This document shows positions 1 through 21,731 of a DNA stretch of 42,650 nt, piece by piece. A program made the translations under genes and the position numbers. Under the pieces are notes generated by a model, which was given only the letters and a program-made list of their open reading frames with translations, was not told the origin of the DNA and made no database searches. Each line of letters opens with the position of its first letter. Positions within the stretch are counted from its first letter, which is position 1. This DNA is from Planctomycetota bacterium (GTDB lineage: Bacteria; Planctomycetota; SZUA-567; H5-PLA8): positions 1 to 42,650 of the forward strand of contig JBBRPR010000068.1 in the NCBI GenBank assembly GCA_038227875.1, in the 5' to 3' direction.

Positions 1-2
1 AA

Positions 3-512
3 ACGTGTCTCCCGCTGCCTGCGGCCCCATCCTGCCAACCTCTTCCACTATCTCGTCACTTTCCATTTTCATCGCTCCCATACCTTTCTTCATCGGCACG
101 GGACGCTCTTCAATTTTCAACAATCAGTGGGACGCTTCCGAGTCTTCTTGTCGTAGAAGATGAAACGGACGCTCGTGACCTTATCGCTTTTGCATTGCGG
201 CAAGCCGGTGCGCAAGTAAAGGCGACAGCATCAGTTCAAGAGGCACTCGAAAGCTTTTGCGAAAAAAAGCCCGACGCGATTGTCTCAGACCTTGGGATGC
301 CCGTTGAAGATGGTTTTGTTCTCATTCGGAAGGTTCGAGAACTTGAAGCCAAAAATGGAACGCGCACGCCCGCTATTGCATTGACCGCTTATGCGCAAGA
401 CGTTGACCGCGTTCGATGTTTGGCATCCGGCTTCAACATGCACATTCCAAAACCAATTGACCCCAATGCACTTGTCTTGGCAGTGTCGAACCTTCTGGAA
501 CTGCCTTTGTGA
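3..512 (+). CDS. C-terminal part of a hybrid sensor kinase / response-regulator receiver domain (5'-truncated by the window)
   Basis: Frame is open from position 3. Receiver motifs LLVVEDE, IVSDLGMP (phospho-Asp), IALTA and HIPKP. Confidence 0.85.
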   Translation, partial: TCLPLPAAPSCQPLPLSRHFPFSSLPYLSSSARDALQFSTISGTLPSLLVVEDETDARDLIAFALRQAGAQVKATASVQEALESFCEKKPDAIVSDLGMPVEDGFVLIRKVRELEAKNGTRTPAIALTAYAQDVDRVRCLASGFNMHIPKPIDPNALVLAVSNLLELPL

Positions 513-537
513 ATACTCAGAAAGTTGCTGTCTACCC

Positions 538-1473
538 CTACGTTTTCGGCACCTTCACTTTCGCAAATGCTTCGTTAACTCCGCGCCGCACTCGATTCAA
601 ATATTTTTGTGTCGTGCCCAACCCGCTGTGACCGAGCGCCAGCCGAATCGCTTCAACCGATGCTCCCTGTGAGTCCGCTTCACAGGCAAAGTAATGCCGC
701 AGCGAATGGGGACTGCATCCTTCGGCCAAACCCGCTTTTTTCGCCAGTTTCTTGAATCGCTCGTAAGTGCTGGAAACGCTCAAGCGCCGGTCAGTAGCCA
801 TCGCATTGATGGGCTTTGCGCGAGCCATTGCGATAAACAGCGGCGCGGTTTCATTCAATTCATCCGTGCGCCGTGAAAGATAGCTCAGCACCACAGCCCA
901 TACATCCGGCGAAACGTGGACTTCGCGCTCTTTCTGCCCCTTTCCCGTCACATGAAGCGCCTTCCAATCCTTTTCGTCCGCCTCACGCACGTCGCCCACC
1001 GAAAGCCCACAGATTTCCGAAATGCGTAATCCTGTAGCGGCCATCAGCAAGAACATCGCCCGGTCCCGCAACTGAGCCATTGAATGCCCGCCAGCCTTCT
1101 CAAAGAGCGCCTTAATCCCTTCCGGCGTCAGACCACGGGGTTTTCCGGCTGGCGGGACTGGCGGCACGTCCACAAATTGCAGCGGGTCTTCTTTGAGTTC
1201 CCGCTCCCGGACAAGGAAGTTGAAAAAAGCCTTAACGATGACAACCTTACGATGGATGGTCGCGGGCTTGAGATTTTGGCGGCGACATGATTCAATGTAC
1301 CCGCGCAAATCGCTCGCAGTGACGTTGTGCGTGGGTTTATTGACCCATTGCAGGAAGATTCGCAACTCGCTGGAATAGACCCGCTGAGTGCCCGCAGGAC
1401 GCCCAAGAATGAACGATGCAACCAGCGCGTCATCGTTGCGGGTCTTCTGGATAATGCGGAGTGCGGCGCTCAT
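538..1473 (-). CDS. XerC/XerD-like tyrosine recombinase
   Basis: N-terminal SAM-like core-binding region. Full catalytic set: TGLRISE (R), GKGQKER (K), HSLRH, LGH, TTQKY (Y). Confidence 0.95.
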   Translation of the reverse strand: MSAALRIIQKTRNDDALVASFILGRPAGTQRVYSSELRIFLQWVNKPTHNVTASDLRGYIESCRRQNLKPATIHRKVVIVKAFFNFLVRERELKEDPLQFVDVPPVPPAGKPRGLTPEGIKALFEKAGGHSMAQLRDRAMFLLMAATGLRISEICGLSVGDVREADEKDWKALHVTGKGQKEREVHVSPDVWAVVLSYLSRRTDELNETAPLFIAMARAKPINAMATDRRLSVSSTYERFKKLAKKAGLAEGCSPHSLRHYFACEADSQGASVEAIRLALGHSGLGTTQKYLNRVRRGVNEAFAKVKVPKT

Positions 1474-2513
1474 GACAGTGTTCTCCCGGAAACCTTCAAT
1501 CCGTGGTGATTCCGCAAATGTTCAATTCCGTTGCGCGTCAAGACTCGCCCGCGCCCGGTTTTCACAATCAAGCCACGGTGCATCAAGAATGGCTCGACAG
1601 TTTCTTCAAGCGCCCTTTGGTCTTCGCCCACCAGCGATGCCAGCGTGTTCAAACCGACCGGCTGGCCAAGATTGTTGGAAAGCAGTTTCAGCACTTCAAC
1701 ATCGAGCCGCGCCAGTCCGATTGGGTCGATGCACAAAGATTCGAATGCGGCCTCACAAATGGCTGTGCTCACCGTGGTCTTGTTCTTGCCGATGGAGATG
1801 TCACGCACTTGCTCACACAGCGCCACAATTTTGCGCGGCACTCCACGGCCACGCGATGCAATGAGCGCTGCCTGTTTGTTCCCGCACTTGAGGCTGAACT
1901 TTTCGAGAACTTGCCGAGCAATCTTCGCGGAGTCATTTTGGTCGTATGGTTCCAGCCGGAGATTCAGTCGCAGCCGGTCCCGAAGCGATGTCGTCAAATC
2001 GCCCGGACGGTTGCTGGCCATCACAAGCGTAAAGCAGGGAACCCATTCGCGTGTAGGAGTCATCATGCCGGTGATTGGGTTGCGGATGATGGATTCAAGC
2101 ACCCGGTCTTCAACCGCGCCGTACAGCAATTCTTGGCTATGGCGCGGGAGCCGGTGCGCTTCATCGACCAGTAGCACCGTGGGCTTTGTGGCACCGACTA
2201 CGTTCCCCTTGCCATCGTACCCGTGGTCATCCAGTTTCGAGAGAAGCCCTTTAACATCGGAAGAATTATCCAGCGCTTCTGCCGTCGTAGACACAAAACC
2301 AATGCCCATTTCAATAGCAATGAGCCGAGCGAGCGATGTCTTGCCGAGTCCAGCAGCGCCCGTAAGCAATGTATGTGGGAATGGCGCGTTGCGTTTATGG
2401 GATGCAGCCGCCGTAGTCCGAATCAATTCCTTCAAATGATTTTGGCCGACGAATTCCGATAGTGTTTCCGGTCGGATGCCATTCAGGGTTTCGTTTGAAT
2501 CGAGCGTGCTCAT
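1470..2513 (-). CDS. ruvB: Divergent RuvB-like Holliday-junction branch-migration AAA+ ATPase
   Basis: IRP..L.EFVGQ, Walker A GAAGLGKT, Walker B LLVDEAHRL, SLRDR, RGVPR and a C-terminal winged helix (PVGLNTLA...VEPFL...TGRGR). Its stop overlaps the recombinase ATG (ATGA). Confidence 0.9.
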   Translation of the reverse strand: MSTLDSNETLNGIRPETLSEFVGQNHLKELIRTTAAASHKRNAPFPHTLLTGAAGLGKTSLARLIAIEMGIGFVSTTAEALDNSSDVKGLLSKLDDHGYDGKGNVVGATKPTVLLVDEAHRLPRHSQELLYGAVEDRVLESIIRNPITGMMTPTREWVPCFTLVMASNRPGDLTTSLRDRLRLNLRLEPYDQNDSAKIARQVLEKFSLKCGNKQAALIASRGRGVPRKIVALCEQVRDISIGKNKTTVSTAICEAAFESLCIDPIGLARLDVEVLKLLSNNLGQPVGLNTLASLVGEDQRALEETVEPFLMHRGLIVKTGRGRVLTRNGIEHLRNHHGLKVSGRTLS

Positions 2514-2674
2514 TTCAAAAGCCTTTCATTAAAAAGTCACACTTTTAACAACGTTTGAGGTCGGTGATTTGCCAAATAATTTCGAGAAATATCGAAGCGA
2601 AAATAAATTGCTGAATTGTTTGGAATCCGGCGCACTTGCCGCGTTAATTAAAATGTACATTCAGGAGAGAGAGC

Positions 2675-3265
2675 GTGGATACCAATGGAAAAATACAGGA
2701 ATCCGTACTGGATGACTGGCTCCGACAAGGTAAGGAGTTGGTCATGTCCACAATGAAGAGGCTTCGAATCCAGCGTGACCTATGCCCACTCATGTCGAGT
2801 GATTCAGACCGCGCCAAGTTGCTCCCCAAGTTTGCGGAATTGAACACCGACATTGACCGGCGCTGCGAAGCAATGCGCAAACTGGAAAATGAACATTTCG
2901 GCTGCTCCGCCATATTGGGGCGGGAAGCTGAACGGAACTCGGTATATGTTGCCTGTGTGCTGTTGGCGTTCGCTCGCTTGAATGACTCGCTGGACAGTGA
3001 ATGCCATCTGATTTCGAACATCATGCAGATGGTCGGCACGGACCCATGTGATGCGCTCGTGGTAAGAGACGCATTCAGAACCCAAGGCGCGCTCTATGAA
3101 CACGTGGAAATTTCGGACGCTTCGGCGATTGACCATGCACACGCGCAGATTTCGGAGGTGGCGCTCAATAAAGTGCTCGGACGTGATTCCACGCCGTATG
3201 AGGAGTACCTGCACGTGAAGAACATCATGGAAGTGGTTTCGGAGAGGACAAAGACGCGGCGATGA
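2675..3265 (+). CDS. Hypothetical protein
   Basis: 196-aa ORF with AGGAG upstream of a GTG start; no recognised motif. Confidence 0.65.
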   Translation: MDTNGKIQESVLDDWLRQGKELVMSTMKRLRIQRDLCPLMSSDSDRAKLLPKFAELNTDIDRRCEAMRKLENEHFGCSAILGREAERNSVYVACVLLAFARLNDSLDSECHLISNIMQMVGTDPCDALVVRDAFRTQGALYEHVEISDASAIDHAHAQISEVALNKVLGRDSTPYEEYLHVKNIMEVVSERTKTRR

Positions 3266-3489
3266 AGTGACTTGCGACGGTCGCCACAGGATACGACGAC
3301 AATCCCCCTTTTTGCAAATGACCAAGTCATAAAAGCTGAACGTGTGTTCGTGAATTATTTTTTGGAAATGGTATTTGGTTTTGCGGGTTCAAGGAATTCA
3401 ATGTCGTATTAAATTTTGAATACGATGGGAGATTTCACGTTTGGCTGTTCGGTAAATCTCGGATTTCGAGTTTTTTAAAAGGGTATTTT

Positions 3490-3789
3490 TCACGATAACC
3501 TGCGCAGTTTTTTGAGAGGCGTGGGCTGGAAATTATGGTCACGCTCTATCGGCAGACCGCACACCACGGTTTCTTCCAGTTCCTCAAGGGAGAAATATCC
3601 AAGCTCTTCTTCTTGGCATTGAACCAGCCCGAAAAATATTTTTGTTGTCGGATTATACTCCGTGGCGTAGGCAGTGTAATTCGAGAGCGGATGGAAATAC
3701 TTCACGTAAGCGATTGCTTCGTCGCCTTTACCGTCCTGCGAATACAACGGCGGTAAGCGCTCTTGGTCAGCTTTGGTTAGCAGGTTCAT
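3490..3789 (-). CDS. DUF2958-family protein (mobile-element associated)
   Basis: LPPLYSQD...VKYFHP...ATEY...FFGLV...ELGYFSLEELE...LPIERD pattern; GGAGA RBS. Confidence 0.85.
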   Translation of the reverse strand: MNLLTKADQERLPPLYSQDGKGDEAIAYVKYFHPLSNYTAYATEYNPTTKIFFGLVQCQEEELGYFSLEELEETVVCGLPIERDHNFQPTPLKKLRRLS

Positions 3790-3940
3790 GGTATCAGTCT
3801 CCGTTGGTCCAAAATAATTAACGCAGAGCTACTCCTGCTTTCTAAGAAATTCCCGTATAAAATTCAGGCGACTCGGACTGTCGAGTTCCTTCCGTGACGT
3901 GCCCGTTGTTTTACTTAGTGCGCGTGATATAATCGGATTC

Positions 3941-4576
3941 ATGGCTGACCCTGATACCGCACATTTAATCAGCGACTACAACATCCAACTCTGGATGATG
4001 ATTTCAAATTGCGTAATGGCACTAGCAACCGTTGTACTTGGTATCTTTTCCATATTATTTGTGCGCAAGCAGAATGCGATTCTCGGCAACCAAACAGCGA
4101 CCATGAGCAAGCAAAATGAAATTATTGCAAATCAGGTCGATGTTGAAAGCAACACTTTAAAACTTGAGTTATATGATAAGCGTTTCGATGTGTTCGCGTC
4201 GGTAATGGACATGCTTGTAAACTTGCCTTTAGTCGAAGACGACAATGTTGATGACAAAATTTTTAATCAGTTTGAGGCGAGTGTCCTACACGGACAGCTA
4301 ATGCTTTCTAAGGATGTGTGGGAATACGTGCTCCAAGTTCAATTCAAGGTCAAGGAGTATGTAGACCTGTATTGTGCATACACGCAAATTGGCTGTACTG
4401 GTACACCAATGGGAATAAGACAGGGTAGACGCTTGAAAGGCGAAGGGGAGACTGCAAAACACAAAGAGTTAGTAGAATGGTTTAGAAGTCAGCCGAAAAT
4501 TGCACTTGAAAAATTTAGGAAGGACTTAGACCTAACGAATATTATGGATGCTTCAACACGTGGCGTCAAGATTTGA
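3941..4576 (+). CDS. Hypothetical protein with N-terminal TM helix followed by a coiled-coil-like segment
   Basis: Hydrophobic stretch ISNCVMALATVVLGIFSILFV, then a Q/N-rich heptad region and KLELYDKRF; AT-rich coding. Start at ATG 3941 is a guess. Confidence 0.7.
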   Translation: MADPDTAHLISDYNIQLWMMISNCVMALATVVLGIFSILFVRKQNAILGNQTATMSKQNEIIANQVDVESNTLKLELYDKRFDVFASVMDMLVNLPLVEDDNVDDKIFNQFEASVLHGQLMLSKDVWEYVLQVQFKVKEYVDLYCAYTQIGCTGTPMGIRQGRRLKGEGETAKHKELVEWFRSQPKIALEKFRKDLDLTNIMDASTRGVKI

Positions 4577-4652
4577 AGATAAATCGCAAATCGAGCACTT
4601 TCCCACTTCATGCTTACTCATACGCGCCAGAATCACCAGCATGAATAGCGGT

Positions 4653-5930
4653 TTAACCAGCGTGAACTACCGGCAATTCAGACCACCGCGTAGTGAACCG
4701 GGGTGACCTGCACAGGAACTTGGTCTTCCAAGTTTGTCGAAACCCCGTCGCAGCATAATGAATAGTTCCGGCTCCCATGTTCGCGTTAAGACTGTCCATC
4801 GCTGCCGATAATTTACCATCCCGTTCCCGGTTTCGTTCGTCAAAAAGATTGGCTTGGGCGCGGTTCGCCGGTACAAGCTCGTTCAGCAACACTCCCGCCT
4901 TTGAATATCGGTAGCCCTCACGAAAAATTGTATCCAGCCCTTGCAAAGCGTATCGAATCAACTCGCTCGTGTCAGCGGTCTGCACAGGAAGCACAATATT
5001 TACCGCGTTGCTGTACTGCGGTTCATCCTTCCTGAAATGGTTGGTGTGGACGAAGACGGTCAAGTAGCTTGCCGCCAAGCCGGAACGCCGCGCTTTTTCC
5101 GCTGCGCGACTGCAATACGATGCCACAGCTTCTTGCATTTCGGCCAGCGTTTCAATGGGGCGGGAGAATCCACGCGATACACAGATGTTCTTTTTGTGCG
5201 GTGGATGCAGGTCCAACGAGATACAGGGCGTGCCGCGAAGCTCAAGGACCGTGCGCACTACCACGATGCCGAAACGCGCTTTGAGCCAGCGTACATCCGC
5301 GCCACGTAGGTCCAGCGCAGTGAGGATTCCGCGAGCCTTGAGGACGCGGCTTATCCCCGGCCCGATGCCCCACACGTCTTCCACGGCAATCCGGGAGAGA
5401 AGCGAATCCCGCTCTGAATCTGGCAGCACCGTAAGGTCCAGCACGCCATTGGTTGAGAACTTCTTGGCGGCGCGATTGGCGAGCTTTGCGAGTGTCTTCG
5501 TTCCCGCGATGCCAACAGATACGGGAATTCCGGTGCATCTTTTCACTGTGGCCCGGACGTGCTTGGCATAATCGGTCAAATTGCGTTCGCCAAGGTCCGC
5601 CAAATTCAAAAAAGCTTCGTCGATGCTGTAGACTTCCATTTCCGGCGCGCATTGCCGAAGCGTCTCCATGACCCGCCGCGACATATCTCCATACAGTGCG
5701 TAGTTCGAAGAGTACATCTGGACGCCGTGGGTCTTTATCACGTCCTTTATTTCAAAGACGGGGACGCCCATTGCGATTCCAAGGGCTTTGGCTTCCGGGG
5801 AACGTGAAACAACGCAGCCGTCGTTATTTGACATGACGATAACCGGCTTGCCTTCGAGCTTCGGGTTGAATACCCGCTCACAGGAGACGTAGAAATTATT
5901 GCAATCCACCAGAGCGTAAGTCGGTGACAT
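4653..5930 (-). CDS. umuC: Y-family DNA polymerase V catalytic subunit
   Basis: [37 protein letters not shown] and C-terminal [12 protein letters not shown]. Confidence 0.96.
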
Positions 5931-5935
5931 GGTTT

Positions 5936-6364
5936 TCAGACCGGATGAATGACGTTTGTGACAACGCCCCAAATCGCGACATCGGTTTCGTCATAAATAT
6001 TCAAGGGCGCGTAATCAGGGTTATCGGATTCCAGCGAAACAACGTTCCCGCGCTTGTGGAGCCGCTTCACGGCCAGTTCGCCGTCAATGACCGCGACGAC
6101 GACGCTTCCATGAACAGCTTCCTTGGCGCGGTCTACGACCAGCAAGTCGCCGGAATGAATATGTCCTATCATCGAGTCGCCGGAAGCCCGCACGAAGAAT
6201 GTTGCGGCGGGATGTTTGATAAGATGTTCGTTCAAGTCCAGCGAGCGTTCAATGTAATCGTCGGCGGGCGAAGGGAAGCCAGCGGGAATTGGAGCCGCAA
6301 ACAGGGGACGCCAACAGCGGCTTGCAGTCTTGGCCGGATGGATGCTCTCCGTGTGTGTTGGCAT
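5936..6364 (-). CDS. umuD: DNA polymerase V accessory subunit (S24 autopeptidase)
   Basis: AGFPSPA cleavage site, GDSM catalytic Ser, VKRL catalytic Lys; directly upstream of umuC. Confidence 0.95.
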
Positions 6365-6570
6365 GTTTTTCCCCCGGACGCCCCAACTACCAATTAGATG
6401 TTTATTAGGGCGCAGGAAGTAGGTCAAGTCAGCTAATAAAACATTGTCCGTTCAACGCGCTGAGCAGTGCTCTTTTAGAGCATAGGTCTTCCAGATGAGG
6501 CGGACGAAAACCCATTTTAATGTGTAACATTTGTGTAACGTATGAAAAATGTTCATAGGTGCGAAAGTGT

Positions 6571-6607
6571 TTACGAAAGCATTGCTCTACCGCTGAGCTA
6601 AGATGGC
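6571..6607 (-). tRNA. 5' half of tRNA-Thr(CGT), truncated after the anticodon loop (att junction)
   Basis: Minus strand reads GCCATCT TA GCTC AGCGGTA GAGC A ATGCT TT-CGT-AA. The expected AGCAT stem strand, T-arm and AGATGGC do not follow. Confidence 0.88.
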
Positions 6608-6642
6608 GAGGAGGAAACTCCGTGCGGGATGCTTCGTCGAAG

Positions 6643-6670
6643 ATTATGCAGAAACCGATTCCACTTTCAA
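6643..6670 (-). promoter_or_regulatory. Sigma70-like promoter of the tRNA-Thr
   Basis: TTGAAA-16 bp-CATAAT on the minus strand, ~35 nt upstream of tRNA G1. Confidence 0.6.
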
Positions 6671-6731
6671 GCGCGTTGCACAAACTCTCTACTTTCTCGC
6701 TGTAATTTTTTTTCGACGCTGTTCTCTCCCT

Positions 6732-8720
6732 TCACTTTTCTGTCGGCACCACAATGCCGCGCATGATCAGGTTTTGGCAGAAGATGAAGACCAGCAGCGT
6801 CGGCACGGCTGCGATCACCAGCGCAGCGAAGACCACAGCGGGATGAACCTGGCTCTGCAGCTGGTACAGCCACACCATCAGTGTCCACATGCGCTGATCG
6901 GGAATGATAATCAGCGCGACCATGAACGCGCTGTACGCGCCGTTGAAGGCGTCGAGCGCGGTGACGGCGAGAATTGGCTTCGACAGCGCCATCGTGAATG
7001 TCCAGAATTTCGTCCATTCACTTGCTCCATCAATCTCGGCGGCTTCGTACAGTTCCTGTGGAAGGCTGTCGAAAAATCCTTTCAGCAGGAAAATGGAGAA
7101 GCCGTTGGCCATGCTCGGGAGCACCAGCGCGGCGAACGTGTTGAGCAGGCTGACGTGAATGTCGCCGACGAGCACCGGCACAATCCATAATCCGGCCACC
7201 ATCGCGACGCCTAGTGAGATCAGTGCGCGAATCGTATCCTGCATCTGGGCCTTCACTTTTCCCAGGATGATCCAGGCGATCACAAAGGCGATTGTGCCAC
7301 CCACGAGTGCGGCGACGGGAAAACTGCGCTTCAGCAAAAAGCCGGGGATCATCGTCACTTCGCCGGGGAAAGCCATCGTCGCCATGCAGAACAACAACAC
7401 GGAGTAGGTGCTCGGTGGTTTAAAGCGGCTGAGGCTGTATGCGGCAAGCGGGTTGACGATCAGCGACGTCAGGATCGCCAGCGCGCAGTAGATAAACGTG
7501 TTCCAGACACCATCGCCATGCATGACGACGTACTCCAGAACGTGCTTGTAATTCCGCGTCGAGAATTCCCAGCGCAGGTCCTTGTGGTTGACCTGCGTGT
7601 CGTGATAGTCGGCTTCGTACGTGGGCAACGGAATTGGCGGAACTTTGTCGAGCGCGATGCCACGCTTGGCGGAGACGAATTCTTCGAAGGCCTGGCGCGA
7701 TCCATAGACCTCCAGCGCCCCAGTGGGGCATTGGTCACTGCGCAGAAAGCCTTCCCAATCGACTTGCGAGAGCCTGTCGCCCGGGGCGATGTGGGGGAAG
7801 GGGAGGTCATTGAAACTGGCGTAACTGGTTTTGAATTTGGCGTTGAACTGCGCGATGTTTTCATAGCGCGACGAAATGAACGTGCGGTATGTGGCTGCTT
7901 GCGATTCGTCGATGCGAATGGCATCGAGCGAAAGCTGCTCTCGGACGAACTTATCCCAGTCCTCCCGTGTCAGTCCCGACGCGGGTGCACGGCGCGTCAG
8001 CAGAATTTCGTTGTAGCTGCCATATGCGGAACCGTGTTTCTTGTTGTACTCTCCAATGTTCTCCGTGTAGGTGGGCATCAAAAAACTTTTGGTGAAGCGA
8101 CCGTCAAAATTGATGATGGCCCGGTCTTCAATCGGACGTGTCTGCGCGAAAGTCAGGAACGCCTGAACCAGAGGATTGTCCTGATTCGAAAAGCGGAACG
8201 GGTTGGGCATCGGCGGCGGGCGGACGTCGTTCCATGATTTCACCGGCAGCTTCATTTCTGTCGCGAACGCGTCGAGATTGCCCTTGTACTTTTCCTGCAT
8301 GTACGCGCGAAAGATACGTGCATTGGCCTGCAGGAACTGACCGGTGTTTGTATGCCCCAGCCACCACCAGTGGCAATCCTTGCGCCATTCCAGGAAGTCG
8401 TCGAGGTACTCGGACTGTTTTGTCGGCGCGGGAATCTTGTCCCAGATGCCGACGCGTTGTCCCCACTGAATTTCCGCCTGATCCAGCGAACCGTTGTACT
8501 TGGACTCCGCGTACTTCTGAAACAGCGGCAGTTCCTCAAACCAGTATGGTGGATAGGCGGTCATGTCGTTGCAGTCGGCGGCGCTCTTGACCGAACCGGT
8601 GAGCATCAGGATCAGGGGGTAAATCATCGACGCCGCGCCGATCAACAGCACGACAAAGAGCGTGCCATAGACGGCGCGCACCCGTATGCTCTTGGATCCG
8701 ACGTGACTGATGATCGGCAT
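6732..8720 (-). CDS. Carbohydrate ABC transporter permease (MalG-type) with a large periplasmic insertion
   Basis: EAA motif LPQELYEAAEIDGASEW, AAYSLSRF and multiple TM helices; start at MPIISH after a GAGG RBS. Confidence 0.9.
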   Translation of the reverse strand: MPIISHVGSKSIRVRAVYGTLFVVLLIGAASMIYPLILMLTGSVKSAADCNDMTAYPPYWFEELPLFQKYAESKYNGSLDQAEIQWGQRVGIWDKIPAPTKQSEYLDDFLEWRKDCHWWWLGHTNTGQFLQANARIFRAYMQEKYKGNLDAFATEMKLPVKSWNDVRPPPMPNPFRFSNQDNPLVQAFLTFAQTRPIEDRAIINFDGRFTKSFLMPTYTENIGEYNKKHGSAYGSYNEILLTRRAPASGLTREDWDKFVREQLSLDAIRIDESQAATYRTFISSRYENIAQFNAKFKTSYASFNDLPFPHIAPGDRLSQVDWEGFLRSDQCPTGALEVYGSRQAFEEFVSAKRGIALDKVPPIPLPTYEADYHDTQVNHKDLRWEFSTRNYKHVLEYVVMHGDGVWNTFIYCALAILTSLIVNPLAAYSLSRFKPPSTYSVLLFCMATMAFPGEVTMIPGFLLKRSFPVAALVGGTIAFVIAWIILGKVKAQMQDTIRALISLGVAMVAGLWIVPVLVGDIHVSLLNTFAALVLPSMANGFSIFLLKGFFDSLPQELYEAAEIDGASEWTKFWTFTMALSKPILAVTALDAFNGAYSAFMVALIIIPDQRMWTLMVWLYQLQSQVHPAVVFAALVIAAVPTLLVFIFCQNLIMRGIVVPTEK

Positions 8721-8728
8721 GAAATCCT

Positions 8729-11341
8729 CTAGACCTTTTCCGTCGACTTGAATTCCATGTTGCGCAATCGCTTCAACTGGATCACGGTGAATCCGATTAA
8801 CATCGACCCCAGGATCCACGCCATCGCCGTCGCCGGCCCGAAGCGCAAGTATGCGAACGACTCCCAATAGATGTGAAGGCCCACGACTTCCGTCTGCCCG
8901 TTGGGCGTGTACGGTCCGCCGCCGGTCATAACGAGAATATTCTGCCCGCCGCTTTTCATCCCGCCGATCAACGCGCCGATGAAATTGATCGTGATTAACG
9001 CCCGGATACTCGGCAGTGCCACGTAGAAAATCTTTTTTGTCACGCCGGCGCCATCAATGTCGGCGGCTTCGTAAATCTCTTCGGGAATCGTCTTCAGCGC
9101 GGCGAGGTAGATTAGGCAACCCGGACCCATCCCGGCCCAGATCGTCGGCAACAGGCAACAGATCAGCGCCGCCTGGGGCGACGTCAGCCATGCGGTGTGG
9201 TGCTCGGGAACATGCAAGCCCGGAATGTAGTTGATGACTTTGACGCAGAAGTTGACCAGCTGATTCAACGTGCCTTCAGGCGAATAGAAATTCTTCCACA
9301 GGAACATCACGACAACACCAGAGAGCACCGCGGGCAGGTAGTAGATGGTGCGGAAGAGCGTTTTGCCCTTCGGCACTTCGCTGAGCAAAAATGCCAGGGC
9401 AATGGGCGCGCAGAAGCCGAAGATCATCGACAGGAACGCGTACTGCAGCGAGACCCACATTGCGTACCAGAATTCCTGGTCGAAGAGCACGCTGGCGAAA
9501 TTCTCCAAGCCGACCCAATCACTGAAGCCGCGGACATTATAATTCTGGAAGGCCATTACCGTGCCGCGCGCCAGCGGATAATAATCCCACATGGCGATCG
9601 AGATCATCGCCGGAAACAGGCAGATGTACGCCCATTTGTGCTGCTTGATTTTCCAGCCGCCAGGTGCGGTGACGCCTTTCTGCGCAAACGTTGAGAACAC
9701 ATTCCAGAACGTCAGCGAAAAGATGATCAGAATTCCGACGGCGACCAGCAGCGCGATCGTATGCCGGAACGAACGCACTTCCGGCGGAAGTATGTTGAGC
9801 ATCTTCTCGTTGCCGTATGCGACGCGCGCTTTCAGAATCTCGCGGATCGCGTTTTTCGCCGCGACGGCATCACCGCGCTCGATCGCTTCGGTGATGGTGC
9901 TGTCGGTGCGGATCTGGTCGATTGCCTTCGATGCGTATTTGTATACCTGCTGCGTGTTTTCGCCGTACGGCTCGGGCACGCCCAGCGAGACGATCCGGTG
10001 GTACTCTTCTTCCCAGCCTTGCGGAACCTGCGGGACGAATTCCGGATAGCCGGCCGAGCGGAGCAGAGACGGATGCACGAACTGGCCGAGTCCATTCTCG
10101 ACAAACACGCGCGCGCGGATCTGCTGCGCTTCCGGACAATTGTAAAACAGAATGTATTCCCAAGCCGCGTCGCGCTTGACCGGATCGTTTTCCAGGCCCG
10201 CATAGATTCCGGTCATCGACGCATTGAATTCGCCGGCGCTCTGCCCACCCGGTCCCGACGGCGGCGGTCCGAAGCCGTTCGAAGCCGGATCCTTCTTCGA
10301 GAACTGCGTCGATGAGAGGTAATTGTATTCCATGGCAATGCGCAGAGTGGACGTGGATTCATCGCCAAGATAGACGACGCCAGTAAAGTGGCCATACTTG
10401 TTGTCGAACGGTTCCAGAAATAACCGCGCGACGAAATAGTACGCTTCGACGGCGTTTTCAGAATCGAACGCGCAACGCCAGTGACCCTTCTCGTCCTGCT
10501 CCACCAGGCGCCCACCATACGAGTACAGAATATTCAGCGTGCTCCACCCGATTTCACCCAGGTTGAGCGTCAGACCGTACCGGTCCTCTTTCGGGTTGGT
10601 GGTCTTTTTCGCCCAATCGAACATTTCGTCGAGCGTCTTGGGGGCATGGGCTGGCAGACCGGCGTCGTAGAACAAATCCTTGCGGTAAAACAGAGCCATT
10701 ACTTCCGGCGACTGCGGAAAAAACCAGGTGTGCTGATGTTCTTCGACCGGCGCGCCGCCCCAAGCCTTCACGTGCGGACAGTCCTTGCCGTACGGACAGC
10801 GGCGGCGCATCACTTCCCAGCATTGCGGCGTGACACGCTCGCTCAGCGCGGACTCGTAATTCTTGCCCTTTTTCAGCGCCTCCAGATATTCGGGAAACGG
10901 CATCAGGTAGCTGTCTTTGATTTCCACACCCGCGGTCTTCTCAACATACTTGTCGAGGGGGTACAGAAATTTGTTGGCGATGTACGTCGCCGATTGGCGC
11001 AGATTGACGTACATGACTTCCTGCGGAATGTTTCCCGCGATCTGCATCAATGGAACGATGTCCATCGACCGGCCGGGAATTTCCAGGCCCGTCGGTGAGA
11101 TCGGATAAATGTTGGGGAAATGTTTGCGGAACGCCGCCAGAATTTCCAACTGCGCCAATCGTCCCGGATCGGACCCGGCATTGTCGGGTACGCCCCACGC
11201 GCGCAGTACCAGGGGTTGCGTCTGTGTTTGTTCTGGTGCGGTCTCGCCAGCGTTAATCGGGACCTGTGAAGTGGCTCCTACGACTGCAATAATCGTAATA
11301 CACTTTTGTATAAGTCTTTTGTATAGAAACGACTCCACCAT
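8729..11341 (-). CDS. Fusion of carbohydrate solute-binding protein and MalF-type ABC permease
   Basis: Binding-protein motifs LFYRKDLF..AGL and FDSE.AVEA. Permease motifs VGLENF, LFRTIYYLPAV and IYEAADIDGA. Start after an AGGGG RBS. Confidence 0.9.
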   Translation of the reverse strand: MVESFLYKRLIQKCITIIAVVGATSQVPINAGETAPEQTQTQPLVLRAWGVPDNAGSDPGRLAQLEILAAFRKHFPNIYPISPTGLEIPGRSMDIVPLMQIAGNIPQEVMYVNLRQSATYIANKFLYPLDKYVEKTAGVEIKDSYLMPFPEYLEALKKGKNYESALSERVTPQCWEVMRRRCPYGKDCPHVKAWGGAPVEEHQHTWFFPQSPEVMALFYRKDLFYDAGLPAHAPKTLDEMFDWAKKTTNPKEDRYGLTLNLGEIGWSTLNILYSYGGRLVEQDEKGHWRCAFDSENAVEAYYFVARLFLEPFDNKYGHFTGVVYLGDESTSTLRIAMEYNYLSSTQFSKKDPASNGFGPPPSGPGGQSAGEFNASMTGIYAGLENDPVKRDAAWEYILFYNCPEAQQIRARVFVENGLGQFVHPSLLRSAGYPEFVPQVPQGWEEEYHRIVSLGVPEPYGENTQQVYKYASKAIDQIRTDSTITEAIERGDAVAAKNAIREILKARVAYGNEKMLNILPPEVRSFRHTIALLVAVGILIIFSLTFWNVFSTFAQKGVTAPGGWKIKQHKWAYICLFPAMISIAMWDYYPLARGTVMAFQNYNVRGFSDWVGLENFASVLFDQEFWYAMWVSLQYAFLSMIFGFCAPIALAFLLSEVPKGKTLFRTIYYLPAVLSGVVVMFLWKNFYSPEGTLNQLVNFCVKVINYIPGLHVPEHHTAWLTSPQAALICCLLPTIWAGMGPGCLIYLAALKTIPEEIYEAADIDGAGVTKKIFYVALPSIRALITINFIGALIGGMKSGGQNILVMTGGGPYTPNGQTEVVGLHIYWESFAYLRFGPATAMAWILGSMLIGFTVIQLKRLRNMEFKSTEKV

Positions 11342-11469
11342 CAATCCCCTTCGACGACTACTTCTATTCCAGACCGTTAGTGAGGACAACTTTCTAACCG
11401 CGAATTTTCGATTTTCGAGGATCGAATTGAACTTTCGAGAGGGCGGGTGCTGTGGCCATACCAGTTTCT

Positions 11470-11495
11470 CCCTTAGTGACTCGAGTCACTAAGGG
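11470..11495. repeat. 26-bp perfect palindrome overlapping the peptidase stop codon
   Basis: CCCTTAGTGACTCGAGTCACTAAGGG. Confidence 0.85.
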
Positions 11496-13438
11496 GTCGA
11501 TCGTTCCTCTTTCCATTCCAGCAATCCGTGCTTTGCCATGTAGCGGAAATGTTCCGCAAGCAACTCCGATAAATCGCGACCGTGTTCGTAGGCGACACGC
11601 CGCAGAATTTCGGCCACCGTCAATTCGCCGCGCGCCCAGAACATCGCGCACTGCAACGGAGCATTCCAGGTGGGCGACCCAGCCCCGGGCAGTGATCGTT
11701 GCTTCAATCCTTCGTACGAAGGAGTTCCGATGAATTTCTTGCGTGGGCGCAGCTTCGCGATGTCGGAAATCCCGCGCACCGGCTTCAATTCACCCGGTGC
11801 GCAACCCGCGAGCGACTTCAGATGCTGCTGCTCCAATTTCACGCGGTTGCGCGCATGCCCGATCAGGCGATTGAGCTCCATATCTGCATCGTGCTGTTCG
11901 GACTTTGGGATAAGCATCAACGCGGCTCGCAACGTCCGGCTGCAGATCAGCAGGATGTAATCGAGATGGTCGAAGGCTTTGGCGAGTACCTGCGGTTTGT
12001 TTGCTGATTTTTCGCGAAGTTGGACTGCATAAGTGCTGGTGGTCGCATCGATGCGCTTGCCGTACTCCCGCAACGTATGATCGGCCAGAAACAGAATCTC
12101 CTCCGCACCCGCGCTGGCCAGGAAATGCAGGTAGGTCGCCGAGATCACCGCGAAGGCATGGAGTGTCGGCCCGTGAATGGTGTCTAGCGTGTCGGCCGAA
12201 GTGTGCCAGAAGCGATCCTGGCTGTCGACGTACGCGCACGGCACTCCGATATCCGGATCGTTGTAGGCGTTGTCCGTGAGCGCGAAGGCCATGTCGCGGC
12301 GCGTCTTGGCAAACGGCAGCGTTTTATGCAGCCAGGAATCCATCAGCATGCCAATCAACGTATCGATCACTGAAGCCGAAGCATCCGCGCAACGGTGCTG
12401 GCGGAAAATCGCCGTCGCCGATTCCTGGTAGCGTCCGACCGTGTCCCAATTCAGCGCCGCGACGAGGCGCAGCATGATTTCCGGATTTTTCGCCGCGTAG
12501 CCGATCGTGCCGTAGCATTCGTTGGTGAGCACTCCGCGCACGCCGCGTTTCAGAGGTGGCAGCGCCTTGAGTTTGCTCGAGGACTTGATCGCGCGCAGCG
12601 ATTCGAGAATCACCGCACAGCCCGAGGCGTTGTCGTTGGCGCCCTGTTCCATCGCGTGGCCGATCGCCAGGATCTCGTCCTTGCCACTCCCGGGAATGAA
12701 CCCGGAGACAATTGGCAGCGTGCCTTCAAAGTAGCGCGACGCCACTGTCATCTTCAACGTCACGCGCCCGTGCTTCAGCAGCGCATCGAGTTCCGCGCCA
12801 GTGGTCCCGCTGATCGCCATGCCCGGCAGCGGTGTGTCGTCAGCGTGAAACGCCCAGCCTGTCGGATTGTCGGACCATCCGTTGAACCAGAACGTGGCCT
12901 CGGGCAGTAATTCCCGGTTGCGGCAGTAACTGGTCACGACTGCCAGTGCGCCGGCCTTCACCAGGATGGCTTTGAATTCCATCGGATGTGACGGCGTGTA
13001 GACGATCTTGTTCTTCACCGCGCTTAATTTTTTGCGCAGCTCTTTCCTGTCTTCGATCCGCACCACGTCCGCCGTGATTCCCTCGGGAGGCGTCGGACCG
13101 CACCACATGATCGTGTGCGTCGGCCGGTCCTTGCGATCGGCGATGACGCGATTTTTCACGCGCGGCGAAACAATCTCGAGCGTGGCTGATGTACAGTCCC
13201 ACGCCAGCGGCATTTTCCAATCGCCGTACATGGTTTTGCCGTCAGCGGGGAGATGGCAAATCTCGCCTTCAATGCCCCAGTTTTGAATTTTCGAGCGCAC
13301 AATCTCCGCGGTCCTGGCAAACGCCGGATAGGTGAATTGGCGATCGTTCTTCCAGATCGTGCCGACTAGATCGACGAGACTCTTTTCGGAGACGAGTTTG
13401 GCGAAAGCTTTCAAGCGTGCTTGTAAATCGACGGCCAT
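11489..13438 (-). CDS. M28-family metallo-aminopeptidase with PA domain (DUF4910-like)
   Basis: GH...GANDNASG, NECYG and FWHTSADT metal-ligand pattern; start MAVDL after an AGGAG RBS. Confidence 0.82.
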   Translation of the reverse strand: MAVDLQARLKAFAKLVSEKSLVDLVGTIWKNDRQFTYPAFARTAEIVRSKIQNWGIEGEICHLPADGKTMYGDWKMPLAWDCTSATLEIVSPRVKNRVIADRKDRPTHTIMWCGPTPPEGITADVVRIEDRKELRKKLSAVKNKIVYTPSHPMEFKAILVKAGALAVVTSYCRNRELLPEATFWFNGWSDNPTGWAFHADDTPLPGMAISGTTGAELDALLKHGRVTLKMTVASRYFEGTLPIVSGFIPGSGKDEILAIGHAMEQGANDNASGCAVILESLRAIKSSSKLKALPPLKRGVRGVLTNECYGTIGYAAKNPEIMLRLVAALNWDTVGRYQESATAIFRQHRCADASASVIDTLIGMLMDSWLHKTLPFAKTRRDMAFALTDNAYNDPDIGVPCAYVDSQDRFWHTSADTLDTIHGPTLHAFAVISATYLHFLASAGAEEILFLADHTLREYGKRIDATTSTYAVQLREKSANKPQVLAKAFDHLDYILLICSRTLRAALMLIPKSEQHDADMELNRLIGHARNRVKLEQQHLKSLAGCAPGELKPVRGISDIAKLRPRKKFIGTPSYEGLKQRSLPGAGSPTWNAPLQCAMFWARGELTVAEILRRVAYEHGRDLSELLAEHFRYMAKHGLLEWKEERSTP

Positions 13439-13506
13439 GGACTCTCCTGGTGAATTCTTCACCGCCACAATAGGGGAAGTCTGGATTTTTGTGTAGTGAA
13501 AGCGAA

Positions 13507-14883
13507 TCAATCTCGAGTCTGTGCATTTTCTGCGCAAACGTTCACGAAAGATTCCGCCACCGCCGGATTGGACGCCCAGTGCGCGTGAACATAAGAGGCG
13601 AGTACATTTGTAAATGCGCCGCGATAACCCTCTGCTTGCGAGCGCCCCGAGTAGACATCCGTCACCGTATAAGAACACCGCGGATTCTCGACGAGCAACC
13701 GCGGCTCGGAGTAGCGGAACTGCTGCCCTCGAAAGCGGATCTTCGCCGGCCCCAGCACCGTCGGTTCCTGCGTCTCCACGTCGACGTACCCAATCGCTTG
13801 CAGTCGTTCTGACATCACCGTATCGACCGGAATGAGCCCAGCCATTTCGTGCCGTTTTCCATCGAGCGTCAGAATCGCCGCCGCCAGATACATCAGCCCA
13901 CCGCATTCCGCGTAAATGGGCTTTCCGTTCGAAGCGAACGCGCGAACTGCCGAGCGCATCCCCGAATTCTCCGCCAGTTCCGCCGCGTAAACTTCCGGAT
14001 AGCCGCCACCAAAATACAGCCCATCCACATCCGGAAGTTCGGAATCCGTAAGCGGCGAAAAGCGCACCAATGCTGCTCCGAGCCGTTCGAGTCGGCGCAG
14101 ATTGTCCTCATAGTAAAAATGCAACGCCCGGTCGAACGCGATGCCGATCCGGCATCGACGTGGAATCGCAGGCGCCTCTGTCGGGGGAACGGGAAGCGCA
14201 CTCGCCGAGTGCGCAATCGCCAGTACCGCATCGAGATCAAACCACTCGCGGGCCATCTCGCCCCACTGGTGGAGCAATGCATCAGGCACCGTCTCGCGGC
14301 TGGCCGTGACCAACCCGAGATGCCGTTCGGGAAACGCAAGCTCCGCGCGCCGCGGAAATCCGCCAACGATAGGGAAGGGGGCCGTTGCCAGACCGAGCAA
14401 TTCCAGATGCCCCTTGCCGCCGATACCGTTGGCAATTAGCCCCGCGAGTTTCACGTCCGCGTCAAACGTCCGGAACCCGTGCGCCACCGCGGCTATCGAG
14501 CGTGCCATCGCCGACGCATCCAGCGCGAGCAAGACTGGCGCACCAAGCCACTTGGCGATCTGCGCCGTCGAGCCCTCATCGCTGGTCGCCGACGCGCCGT
14601 CGAACAGCCCCATCATTCCTTCAATAATCGCAACATCCGCGCCGCGCGCCCCATGAGCAAACGTCGCCAACACCCCGTCGCGCCCCATCAGCCACGAATC
14701 GAGATTGTGTGAAGCACTCCCCGCCGCGCGCGCATGGTAAGTCGGATCGAGATAATCCGGCCCGCACTTAAACGCGGCCACCTTCAGCCCACGCGCGCGC
14801 AGCGCCACAATCAGCGCCACCACCGACGTGGTCTTGCCCGACCCGCTCGATAAACCACCGATGACGATGCGGGGAATGTTCAC
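13507..14883 (-). CDS. cbiA: Cobyrinate a,c-diamide synthase
   Basis: SGSGKTT, FKCGPDYLDP, IEGMMGLFDG, ERHLGL, GGGYPE, YAECGGLMYL, ASYVHAH. Start is approximate. Confidence 0.93.
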   Translation of the reverse strand: MNIPRIVIGGLSSGSGKTTSVVALIVALRARGLKVAAFKCGPDYLDPTYHARAAGSASHNLDSWLMGRDGVLATFAHGARGADVAIIEGMMGLFDGASATSDEGSTAQIAKWLGAPVLLALDASAMARSIAAVAHGFRTFDADVKLAGLIANGIGGKGHLELLGLATAPFPIVGGFPRRAELAFPERHLGLVTASRETVPDALLHQWGEMAREWFDLDAVLAIAHSASALPVPPTEAPAIPRRCRIGIAFDRALHFYYEDNLRRLERLGAALVRFSPLTDSELPDVDGLYFGGGYPEVYAAELAENSGMRSAVRAFASNGKPIYAECGGLMYLAAAILTLDGKRHEMAGLIPVDTVMSERLQAIGYVDVETQEPTVLGPAKIRFRGQQFRYSEPRLLVENPRCSYTVTDVYSGRSQAEGYRGAFTNVLASYVHAHWASNPAVAESFVNVCAENAQTRD

Positions 14884-14893
14884 GCGCCGCTCG

Positions 14894-15889
14894 TCACTCC
14901 ACTCCCGCAATCAACTTCGCCGCGAACTTGGTCGTCTCGCTTTTTCCCGCCGCGATGTGGATTACCCCGTGGCCGTCTTCGATGGCCTTCGGCAGTCCCG
15001 TGAACGGCTCCAGTGCCAGGACGTACGCGCGACCCCACCACGGCGACTTGAGTTGATTGCAATTTTCGTACAGCCAGCAGTACGGAAACTGTGTGGCGTC
15101 CCAGCTCAGTTCAAAGGCGAGTTTCCAGGTCGGGCTTACGACGCGGAATTTGCCTTCCGTGAAATCGGTGATGAAGACCATCTTGCCCGTGTTGCTTTTG
15201 GGCGCGCCCACTTTCCGCAGATCCACACCGTCCTTGTTCGTCGGCCAGCGCATGCGGATGATCGGATCGTCGCGGTCATCAAAGTAGCTCGTCGCCGGAA
15301 CTTCGATGTAGGTTTTCTCGTCCACGAACGGCGCGCCGAAAATTGGATGCTGCCCCCACATCACCGTCAGGTCCACGCCGCCGAGATTCGTGGCTGTCTC
15401 TTCGAGGTACAGCGTCGGATCGTTCTTCTTCAGCGAGAACGTTTTGGTCAGTTTCCACGGCGTGCGAATGGTGTGGCAGGTCATCGTTACCGAGCAGGAA
15501 TCGTCGTCTTCGTGCGTCGCATTCAGCTCAAACGGCAGACCCCACACTTCGCCGTGAAAGCCAATCTTCGCGCCTTCCTGAGTGACCGGCACCGAGCCAC
15601 TCGGAAAACATTCGTACCAGCCACCGGGGTGGTGATCGAAGATCGGGTGCTGTTCGTAACTGCTGAGCTGAAACGTGCCGAGGGGCCGCAGTCCATTCGG
15701 ATTTTTATACAGCACGTCCAGATCAAGCGGCTTGTATTGAATTTCGGAGATGACCGCGCCGCGCCCGACATTGATGACCACGCGCAGAAATTCATTCTCC
15801 AGCGCAATCACTTCACTGCCGTAAAGCTGATACCCCTTCAGGACTCGAGGACCATGACACTTGGGCGACTGGACGTTCTCGTACTTCAT
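14894..15889 (-). CDS. Galactose-mutarotase-like / aldose 1-epimerase family protein (DUF4432-like)
   Basis: LENEFLRV, GGWYECFP, FHGE, MWGQHP, LALEP. Confidence 0.8.
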   Translation of the reverse strand: MKYENVQSPKCHGPRVLKGYQLYGSEVIALENEFLRVVINVGRGAVISEIQYKPLDLDVLYKNPNGLRPLGTFQLSSYEQHPIFDHHPGGWYECFPSGSVPVTQEGAKIGFHGEVWGLPFELNATHEDDDSCSVTMTCHTIRTPWKLTKTFSLKKNDPTLYLEETATNLGGVDLTVMWGQHPIFGAPFVDEKTYIEVPATSYFDDRDDPIIRMRWPTNKDGVDLRKVGAPKSNTGKMVFITDFTEGKFRVVSPTWKLAFELSWDATQFPYCWLYENCNQLKSPWWGRAYVLALEPFTGLPKAIEDGHGVIHIAAGKSETTKFAAKLIAGVE

Positions 15890-15907
15890 GAAGATCTCCG
15901 GGACGGT

Positions 15908-16026
15908 AGTTTTGAGTGATCAGTTTTGAGTTTTTAGTTATGTTGCCAGCCAGTGACGAATTCAAAACCAAAAACGTATGGCCCGGTTGGCTCTCAATCA
16001 AAACTCAAAACTAACAACTCAAAACT
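15908..16026. repeat. ~27-bp imperfect inverted repeat built from TTTTGAG/CTCAAAA units
   Basis: AGTTTTGAGTGATCAGTTTTGAGTTTT (15908-15934) versus AAAACTCAAAACTAACAACTCAAAACT (16000-16026); 3 mismatches. Confidence 0.85.
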
Positions 16027-16064
16027 CCTTCGTGCCACCCGCGCTCGGATGGACGTTAGTAAAG

Positions 16065-16521
16065 TGCGGGACGTCGGTAAGCCGGCTTCTGTTCAGTAGG
16101 CTTCAATCTGCGTGTTGGACACGCAAACGAAACCTACCGGACGGCCATTTATCTAGGACCACCGTTGCCGGTGGCCTCCAGCGCCCTACCCGCGAATTCA
16201 AACGGCGCGAACCGCGCCTCTCCGCCTATTCGGGCTTGCTCCGGGCTCAGGTTTGCCGTGCCCCCGGCATTGCTGCCGGAGCGGTGGGCTCTTACCCCGC
16301 CGTTTCACCCTTACCACACGCGGCTGATTGCTCAGCGCGCGTGGCGGTTTATTTTCTGTGGCACTGTCTCTGAAGTTCGACGCCCAAACTGCGGCGTCTC
16401 CTCCGATGGGCGTTACCCATGGCCCTGTCCTATGGAGGCCGGACTTTCCTCGGCGGAGGCTGTTGCGGTGGTCCGAAGGCCATCGCACAGGTAGTCCGCC
16501 GCGGCCGTCCGACGCCCCGCA
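16065..16521 (-). ncRNA. rnpB: RNase P RNA (bacterial type A)
   Basis: Minus strand has GAGGAAAGTCCGG, CAGTGCCACAGAAAA, GGGTGAAACGG..GGTAAGAGCCCACC and ACAGAAGCCGGCTTA; P1 pairing GCGGGGCGTCGG/CCGACGTCCCGC. Confidence 0.97.
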
Positions 16522-16574
16522 TGTGAGATGATAGCCGAATGACCGTGGACCCGCAACGTGACAAGGTCGAAGCA

Positions 16575-20949: not shown

Positions 20950-21678
20950 TCACGCTTTCAACTCCCTTCCGCTGCGCACGCCACGCACCATGAACGCCGC
21001 CGTCGCAAAGTCGTAGCGCAGATCGTCCTGGCTCGCGTCGCGGTACGTACTGATCAGTGCCCAGCGGTCCTTACCGCTTGTGTTGGCGAACGACGCATGC
21101 AGCGTCAGGTCGTGAAAGAACACCGCCGTTCCCTTGCGCGCTGGCACCACGACGGCCTTGCTCTCGTCGATATCCTCAGGACGCAACCGATTGGTGAAGC
21201 CGACCCCTTCGACATCCTTCCCGCCGTGACTGACCAGCGATTTGTGAGAACCGGGAATGAATTTCAGGCAGCCGTTCTCTGGCGTGGCGTCGTCGAGTGC
21301 GATCCAGACGGAATATTTGTTCGCGCCTTTCCAATAGGTGTAATCCTGATGCCACGGCGATCCGAAATCGACGCCCGCCGACTTGTAGACAATCTTGTCG
21401 CTCCAGAATTCAATGTTCGGTCCGTAGATCTCTTCCCAGACGTTCGCGATGCGCGCGTCACCATTGAGCGCCTTGAAATACGCACTCTTGATGGTCAGCC
21501 CGACATACACGCCATTGTCGCGGCTGTCGCTTTTGGCCAGGCGTTCGGATTTGACTTCGTCGAGTACCCGGCGGACTTCTGCCTTGGCCTGGGTCATTTC
21601 GTCGGCTGAAAACAGGTCCTCGACCACCACGTAACCATTGCGCGCGAACTGGGCACCGATCTTCGTTTCGACCAGCAT
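20950..21678 (-). CDS. Phytanoyl-CoA dioxygenase (PhyH) family Fe(II)/2OG oxygenase
   Basis: PWHQD, VWIALDDA..ENGCL.FIPGSH, H..TLHAS..N.S...R; GGAGG RBS. Confidence 0.93.
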   Translation of the reverse strand: MLVETKIGAQFARNGYVVVEDLFSADEMTQAKAEVRRVLDEVKSERLAKSDSRDNGVYVGLTIKSAYFKALNGDARIANVWEEIYGPNIEFWSDKIVYKSAGVDFGSPWHQDYTYWKGANKYSVWIALDDATPENGCLKFIPGSHKSLVSHGGKDVEGVGFTNRLRPEDIDESKAVVVPARKGTAVFFHDLTLHASFANTSGKDRWALISTYRDASQDDLRYDFATAAFMVRGVRSGRELKA

Positions 21679-21713
21679 CTGAAGCATCCTCCGTAACGTT
21701 CGAGTCATCTGCG

Positions 21714-21731
21714 AGTGGGAACGTTCCCACT
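21714..21731. promoter_or_regulatory. LacI-type operator upstream of the phyH-like gene
   Basis: Perfect palindrome AGTGGGAACGTTCCCACT with a central CG. Confidence 0.85.

Follow-up and report, generated by a model that had tools for sequence, protein, structure and literature searches.

A displaced tRNA-Thr(CGT) 5' half in a Planctomycetota genome and the probable 5'-replacing island at its junction

Positions 6571-6607 of a contig from a Planctomycetota genome very probably hold the 5' half of a host tRNA-Thr(CGT) gene that was pushed aside by a 5'-replacing island, with the gene rebuilt at the island's other end, on contig C11. The window analysed here is the entire 42,650-bp contig C68, from contig base 1, of assembly G000 (9.34 Mb, 176 contigs). 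Both junctions can be read in sequence, the rebuilt tRNA gene is intact, and the same geometry occurs with the same integrase family elsewhere.

Results

A truncated tRNA-Thr(CGT) gene in the window

The displaced half of the host gene (6571..6607, minus strand) is 37 nt long and covers tRNA position 1 through the last base of the anticodon loop. Read from 6607 to 6571, it is GCCATCT TA GCTC AGCGGTA GAGC A ATGCT TTCGTAA, comprising the acceptor strand, the D arm, the 5' strand of the anticodon stem and the 7-nt loop with the anticodon CGT; the ACACT that stands directly after the loop in the window is unable to pair with ATGCT. ARAGORN, the check that a preliminary description of this DNA had proposed for the contig, returned no tRNA in the window, and Rfam returned none at the gathering score. 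Since a relaxed Rfam search reached 13.7 bits over 6510-6607 against a cut-off of 29, and ARAGORN returned nothing, no whole gene is concealed in that interval. The single Rfam match at the gathering score in the whole window was a bacterial RNase P RNA class A (16062-16520, minus strand; 268 bits, full Rfam model).

The fragment matches the start of an intact tRNA-Thr(CGT) gene on C11 over 38-39 nt at 100% identity (blastn E ~1e-11 in the 9.3-Mb genome; blastn-short match q1-38), and its tRNA likeness is therefore not a matter of chance. The preliminary description had recognized an intact 5' half ending at the 7-nt loop TTCGTAA; direct reading of the sequence and the C11 alignment bear this out and place it on the minus strand. 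Its suggested search to the left of the window has no sequence to work on, C68 beginning at window position 1.

A rebuilt gene and a divergent integrase on contig C11

ARAGORN counted 81 tRNAs in the whole genome, among them the intact 72-nt tRNA-Thr(CGT) at C11:13695-13766 (Rfam 72 bits, model positions 1-71 of 71), the sole Rfam match over C11:11400-14100. Alignment of the two contigs gave a 39-nt block of 100% identity, window 6570-6608 corresponding to C11:13732-13694, which extends from one base before tRNA position 1 to one base past TTCGTAA. The two junction copies, which sit on different contigs, are identical at 39 of 39 positions. An identity that starts at the mature 5' end exceeds what recombination would need and suggests that the copy has been kept to make a working tRNA.

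Upstream of the rebuilt tRNA and divergent from it lies a tyrosine integrase gene (C11:11903-13549, minus strand), whose start is 145 nt away and whose product is one open frame of 548 aa. The protein scores marginally against Phage_integrase PF00589 (27.3 bits, cut-off 27.1) and more clearly against the phrog_1 integrase (E 2.5e-17), and a PDB sequence search at E <= 0.01 returned no relative. In an alignment of 11 family members, R341 of the GPRxSE motif is present in 10 of 11, and K378 (GTKTG), R502 (EWRH) and Y534 (RHY) are invariant; catalytic roles were assigned to these four residues by motif order, and the usual His positions are non-canonical (MGN). Past the integrase, C11 carries the type I restriction-modification genes hsdM and hsdS, then a DUF2513 gene, then hsdR. 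The GC content is 0.45-0.52 over C11:1-13500 and 0.59-0.67 beyond the tRNA, with a genome mean of 0.596. The 115 nt just past the integrase stop (L001, C11: 11619-11732) are 83% identical to C54:31542-31655, in an element whose integrase is unrelated to that of C11 by BLAST.

Junction repeats and the site of crossover

Two direct GTTACACA repeats, 3 nt apart, occupy 6521..6539 on the minus strand of the window and are putative arm-type integrase sites of the P' arm. These copies (6521-6528 and 6532-6539) are the only two in the 42.6-kb window and stand 31-49 nt behind the loop. The word GTTACAC has five copies across 20 kb of C11, all within 13591-13656, and two of these copies form the same GTTACACA-3 nt-GTTACACA pair as in the window. 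The GTTACAC(A) repeats have the appearance of arm-type sites for the integrase, one set on each arm of a single attachment site, and their presence beside both junctions is the main sequence evidence that the C68 and C11 junctions belong together. We infer on this ground that the two contigs carry two ends of one element and, with it, their order on one molecule.

Between the repeats and the loop, a palindrome TATGAACATTTTTCATA (6541-6557, minus strand) overlaps a CCTATGAA motif at 6552-6559. YCTATGRA-like words were seen by eye, without statistics, 10-20 nt behind the crossover in the window (6552-6559) and at five of six junctions read in relatives; the word was noted at L043-L046 and L048, and some integrase-side arms have it as well. 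An accessory protein may bind there.

The anticodon loop TTCGTAA (6571..6577, minus strand) lies at the 3' edge of the identity block and is the presumed 7-nt strand-exchange region. By ARAGORN count, 5' fragments in the integrase family end at tRNA positions 38-46 and 3' fragments begin at positions 26-33, so that the anticodon loop is the sole stretch common to the 5'-type and 3'-type identity blocks, and the crossover is placed there accordingly. The crossover at the loop claimed in the preliminary description fits these data: the block ends one base past TTCGTAA and the fragment ends in the family agree.

Cargo of the island and its assembly limits

The first element gene behind the junction is umuD-like (5936..6427, minus strand; Peptidase_S24, PF00717, E 3.7e-31) and starts 144 nt past the tRNA fragment, in the direction of the orphaned promoter. 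It is adjacent to an umuC-like Y-family polymerase gene (4653..5972, minus strand; IMS, IMS_C and DUF4113, PF00817, PF11799 and PF13438; E 5.1e-40), the pair of S24 peptidase and Y-family polymerase genes that defines a UmuDC translesion module. The cargo stretch that follows (2675..4576) holds two functionally unassigned ORFs on the plus strand (3899-4576 and 2675-3265) and a DUF2958 gene between them (3490-3789, minus strand); the ORF at 2675-3265 is 40% identical to a gene in another 5'-replacing element (C54:14643-15197). GC content over 2500-5000 of the window is 0.45-0.51, in a genome of 0.596.

A RuvB-like AAA ATPase gene (1470-2513, minus strand) is paired with a gene for a Xer-like tyrosine recombinase (538-1473, minus strand). 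A pair 48-49% identical to these occurs in a 44.6-kb element of G006 (L025 12053-14072) that has the same integrase family in another genus, and the pair may be a conserved cargo or maintenance module. Judged by low GC and by homologues inside other such elements, window positions 1-6570 are cargo-like. Across the junction, upstream of the tRNA promoter, lies the host flank, with an ABC-transporter permease gene (6732..8867, minus strand; GC 0.55-0.58).

Contig C68 breaks in a multi-copy, IS-like repeat end (1..139). Sixteen other contigs carry its first 117-141 nt at one of their ends or within ~40 nt of it. C11 starts in a different repeat, and its initial 117-147 nt are found again at nine places in eight contigs; the two repeat ends measure about 139-141 nt and show that IS-like copies are numerous in the genome. 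No linkage of C68 to C11 through contig-end overlaps was found, both ends lying in multi-copy repeats. Because both contigs start in such repeats, the assembly gives neither the central part of the element nor its full length nor the physical join between C68 and C11.

Promoter searches before the orphaned half and the rebuilt gene

The host-side promoter claimed in the preliminary description holds as a sequence pattern: a sigma-70-like site, TTGAAA-16-CATAAT (6643..6670, minus strand), matches at 10 of 12 positions, 35 nt upstream of tRNA position 1, and is the sole promoter-like site that a scan of 6300-6800 reported. Now orphaned, it aims at the truncated half and onward into the element, with umuD 144 nt further on. 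No terminator-like hairpin was found on its strand over 6300-6800, and read-through into umuD is possible.

A promoter scan of C11:13450-13950, around the rebuilt gene, gave no site, with the proviso that a consensus scan could miss a weak or different promoter; the best site scored by hand upstream of the gene matches 7 of 12. Among rebuilt genes, one of 11 examined has a site of at least 9/12. Ten displaced 5' halves were also scored, three of them at 9-10/12 (C68, C7 and G012) and seven at 6-8. The preliminary description had considered a tRNA rebuilt at the far end under an element promoter, of which the rebuilding stands and the promoter was not seen. Expression of the rebuilt tRNA is suggested by its conservation, and the lack of a sigma-70-like site before the gene would count against it. 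The sequence GC[AT]TAAACC[AT]T, ~20 nt before tRNA position 1, is common to L001 13660-13694 and L002 16466-16500; standing upstream of two rebuilt tRNAs with different integrase families, it may be a weak -10-like element or may be chance.

Contig C25 of G000 (for example 21449-21727) carries an array of 30 of the genome's 81 tRNA genes, including short (69-73 nt) Thr(cgt), Thr(ggt) and Thr(tgt) genes. The array could provide a backup where islands rebuild the chromosomal gene of a tRNA.

A model for integration

Given an intact C11 gene with an identical 5' half, an integrase upstream of it, arm repeats and low GC, we regard the 5'-replacement geometry, one of two alternatives offered in the preliminary description, as well supported. 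An integrative island would have recombined with the host tRNA-Thr(CGT) gene inside the anticodon loop, displacing the host 5' half together with its promoter, and its attachment site would carry tRNA positions 1-38 in place of the usual 3' part. The predicted order, in the direction of the tRNA, is host promoter, host 5' half, island, island-borne 5' half joined to the host 3' half, and host DNA. The island would run from its integrase-distal end in the window, position 6570 down to 1 (umuDC onward), through unassembled DNA, to C11:1-13694 (type I restriction-modification and integrase), and fusion of the host 3' half to the island 5' half would have produced the intact gene at C11:13695-13766. 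The 548-aa integrase is expected to bind the GTTACAC(A) repeats in both arms and to exchange strands in TTCGTAA. The rebuilt tRNA would then rely for its transcription on the 145 nt of island DNA that separate it from the integrase gene, while the strong host tRNA promoter would read towards umuDC; excision would restore the original gene.

The other alternative in the preliminary description, a true inactivation tolerated by wobble reading through tRNA-Thr(UGU), is neither needed nor supported.

Empty sites, circles and bridging contigs

Protein searches with both host flanks across 30 relatives recovered matches at family level only (32-58% identity) and no shared neighbourhood; in one of five relatives alone this tRNA stands at most 5 kb from the M48 peptidase homologue, in a different orientation. 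The comparison with empty-site genomes proposed in the preliminary description was run and came up empty-handed among the genomes of these 30 relatives, which are related at family level only and have no conserved synteny. A 24-nt word across the host flank and the tRNA start had no match in metagenome contigs, relatives of the C11 integrase were not confirmed in metagenome and viral contigs, and no circular junction was found in metagenome scans.

None of the Logan contigs compared with the window holds 31 letters on both sides of 6570/6571, the nearest (5759-6599) reaching 29 nt past the junction. The contigs of run X1, which may be the source sample, cover 5759-6599 and 6579-7560, leaving 6570 unbridged by the 31-letter rule; loose ends at 6570 carry eight letters of the start of the 3' half, which may stem simply from the C11 gene. 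Run X2 contains a relative with nine differences over a 701-nt piece (~98.7% identity). Its pieces fall between 6578 and 11662, with none on 1-6000, and this missing cover carries no weight.

Alternative readings of the two junctions

The alternative that survives best keeps the same geometry and treats the island as a fossil, fixed in place with excision lost and the split permanent, which we consider rather unlikely. Repeats (IS-like) have inserted into the element at least twice, at the contig breaks, neither a circle nor an empty site was found, and the analogous element on C7, described below, has an integrase split over two frames. The C11 integrase, however, is an unbroken frame that retains R341, K378, R502 and Y534, the junction copies have not diverged, and arm repeats persist on both sides; we would place the island, on this evidence, among elements that are still mobile.

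Far less probable is a true split without repair, by which the window 5' half and a 3' half on contig C135 would be the ends of an insertion into a second gene copy, sharing only the loop, and the intact C11 gene would be a separate copy. C135:3760-3801 does carry TTCGTAA and a 3' half identical to the C11 gene at 42 of 42 nt, with non-tRNA DNA before it and host-like FGE-sulfatase genes after it. It has no GTTACAC beside the fragment, however, and shows AGCACAA words on both sides (3700, 3954 and 3965) that match GAGCACAA repeats downstream of the C11 gene; conserved blocks are common to the ~175 nt behind the C135 and C11 3' halves, whereas the window repeats match those beside the C11 integrase. 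Genome G012, too, has 5' and 3' fragments of one tRNA, and there the 5'-side element is contiguous. We take C135 for the relic or site of another element, of the classical kind, that used this tRNA, and not for the partner of the window. The C135 loop and 3' half (L003 3584-3975) adjoin an IS-end remnant and an IS21 element with istA/istB (232-2470). The (G)AGCACAA repeats and the blocks are common to C135 and the DNA downstream of the C11 gene (L001 13767-13940), and mobile DNA may lie on either side of the rebuilt gene.

An assembly chimera at ~6570, formed through the 39-nt repeat shared with C11, is the least credible reading: the junction is unbridged in Logan contigs and the repeat is found on C11 and, slightly diverged, twice on C7, but contigs share 139-141-nt ends that imply a word size of ~141, well above 39 nt, so that real reads must presumably span the repeat, and the anatomy of the window junction (loop, YCTATGRA word, paired repeats) is that of contiguous junctions elsewhere.

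Other 5'-replacing elements in the same genome

The 5'-replacement geometry favoured for the window is complete on a single contig at C7, with an integrase different from that of C11. Here a 40-nt 5' fragment of tRNA-Thr(UGU) (C7:60502-60541) stands behind a TTGATG-16-CATAAT promoter, and the intact tRNA-Thr(UGU) (C7:73499-73572) lies on the same strand 13 kb downstream; the two ends share 40 nt, and CCGCCTCACA repeat pairs occur at both ends of the element. The intervening 13 kb (L002 of C7:57000-76000, 3502-16572) is phage- or satellite-like, with terminase, portal, primase-helicase and HTH genes and an integrase split over two frames (L002 15296-16396 and 15993-16478).

Two further cases involve tRNA-Pro(GGG), whose 5' fragment (positions 1-47) and intact gene are both on C54, 20 kb apart (C54:13170-33363), and tRNA-Ser(CGA), whose 5' fragment (positions 1-41) is divided from its partner over two contigs (C95:18916-20641 with C52:3817-3906). 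A second tyrosine integrase family serves both sites, and its two members are 31% identical (PF00589 31.4 bits for that of C54). In this second family the integrase gene follows the truncated fragment at ~105 nt and with the same orientation, which aims the orphaned host tRNA promoter at the integrase gene.

Both geometries in one integrase family

A sample of 401 genomes of the phylum contained the C11 integrase family in seven, each of which belongs to family f1, like the window, and the species collection contained it at 15 loci, all titled Planctomycetota MAGs. With each locus counted once, 19 loci have a tRNA next to the integrase start; outside these, seven have no tRNA in the fetched flank and one is ambiguous (L042). 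The tRNA 5' end faces the integrase in 10 of the 19 (L004, L008-L013, L015, L020 and L029) and the 3' end in the other nine (L005, L006, L014, L017, L032, L033, L035, and C88 and C36 of G000). The closest relative of the C11 integrase, L029 at 39% identity, is also divergent beside a tRNA-Thr(CGT).

Displaced 5' fragments were searched for in whole genomes for nine of the ten 5'-type loci and, for L029, in its 16-kb locus. Seven of the nine genome-wide searches recovered a 5' fragment, 98-100% identical. In four cases it lies on the contig and strand of the intact gene, upstream of it and with the integrase between: G009:C52 (ending at position 41, 5.8 kb from the intact gene), G012:C46 (position 42, 16.5 kb), G006:C2 (position 40, 44.6 kb) and G014:C2 (position 46, 71 kb). 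The remaining three are on a contig different from that of the intact gene and end at position 38 (C68 of G000, the window), 39 (G001:C33) and 43 (G009:C1). No 5' fragment was found genome-wide for the tRNA-Thr(UGU) on C3 of G014 or the tRNA-Leu(CAA) on C59 of G000, each with a divergent integrase, or within the 16-kb L029 locus. For three relatives, 40 kb on the integrase side contained no fragment; the whole-genome searches located two, at the 44.6 and 71 kb given above, and none for the third. Three classical members in G000 have 3' fragments that begin at positions 26-30, and one in G012 begins at 33. Inspection by eye showed that the elements with a displaced 5' fragment each bear their own short repeats at both ends.

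A tree of 23 integrase sequences of at least 300 aa (mafft and FastTree, LG+gamma, midpoint root), from which six duplicate loci and three short pieces were left out, shows the two geometries interleaved. L029 (5', Thr) and L032 (3', Gln) group together with a support of 0.96. The sister of the 5' Leu(CAA) pair is a clade of 3' Leu members (0.90), and within a clade supported at 0.93 L004 lies with two members of the 3' type; support is lacking at several deeper nodes. On this tree the geometry appears to have changed more than once within the family.

Discussion

The integrase of this island resembles what the 2002 classification of Williams reportedly treats as classical anticodon-loop tRNA integrases, in that it is a tyrosine integrase with a 7-nt loop crossover, the stem as inverted repeat and arm repeats on both sides. 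The target is also the tRNA species used by phage P22, which integrates in the tRNA-Thr(CGU) gene thrW. The difference lies in the half that is carried: classical elements bring a 3' part and leave the promoter-proximal copy whole, whereas the present island brings the 5' part, and the truncated copy is the promoter-proximal one.

In their account of thaumarchaeal elements, Krupovic et al. (2019, PMC6563490) call the 5'-distal tRNA region 'considerably less frequent' as a target, cite Zhao and Williams 2002 and archaeal cases for its use, count one of 39 tRNA-targeting thaumarchaeal elements on the 5' side and give CalSub-E1 in tRNA-Ser as an archaeal 5'-distal example. The locus described here shares the 5'-side recombination of archaeal elements of the CalSub-E1 type, but it has a bacterial host and belongs to a family in which this geometry, at 10 of 19 loci, is not a rare exception. 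The element of Zhao and Williams is said to lie in reversed orientation and to recombine with the 5' rather than the 3' region of the tRNA. It would share this 5' use, while the present case concerns a Planctomycetota MAG and an integrase of ~500-550 aa found only in that phylum. The 5'-replacing geometry is thus already known and rare, and this locus is one more case of it; we found no description, in the literature searched, of so high a 5' frequency or of repeated switching in one Planctomycetota integrase family.

The method described in the Phage_Finder paper looks for a replaced 3' end. Island and prophage finders commonly assume a displaced 3' piece and could mis-map or miss islands of the 5' type, which make up about half of one integrase family in this lineage.

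The locus bears on two further questions, how an island supplies transcription for an essential-type gene that it rebuilds and whether a captured tRNA promoter drives island genes, and a family with both geometries side by side provides material for finding what sets the orientation of site-specific integration. We tentatively propose, at somewhat short of even confidence, that an integrase family restricted to Planctomycetota has repeatedly changed which half of its target tRNA, 3' or 5', it carries, with the symmetric anticodon stem-loop as the pivot, and that the 5' type makes the tRNA dependent on the island and turns the host promoter onto island genes. If this is true, about half of the members would make a host tRNA gene transcriptionally dependent on the island, the orphaned strong promoter would drive umuDC here and the integrase gene itself in the second integrase family of G000, and integration would rewire the expression of both the tRNA and the island.
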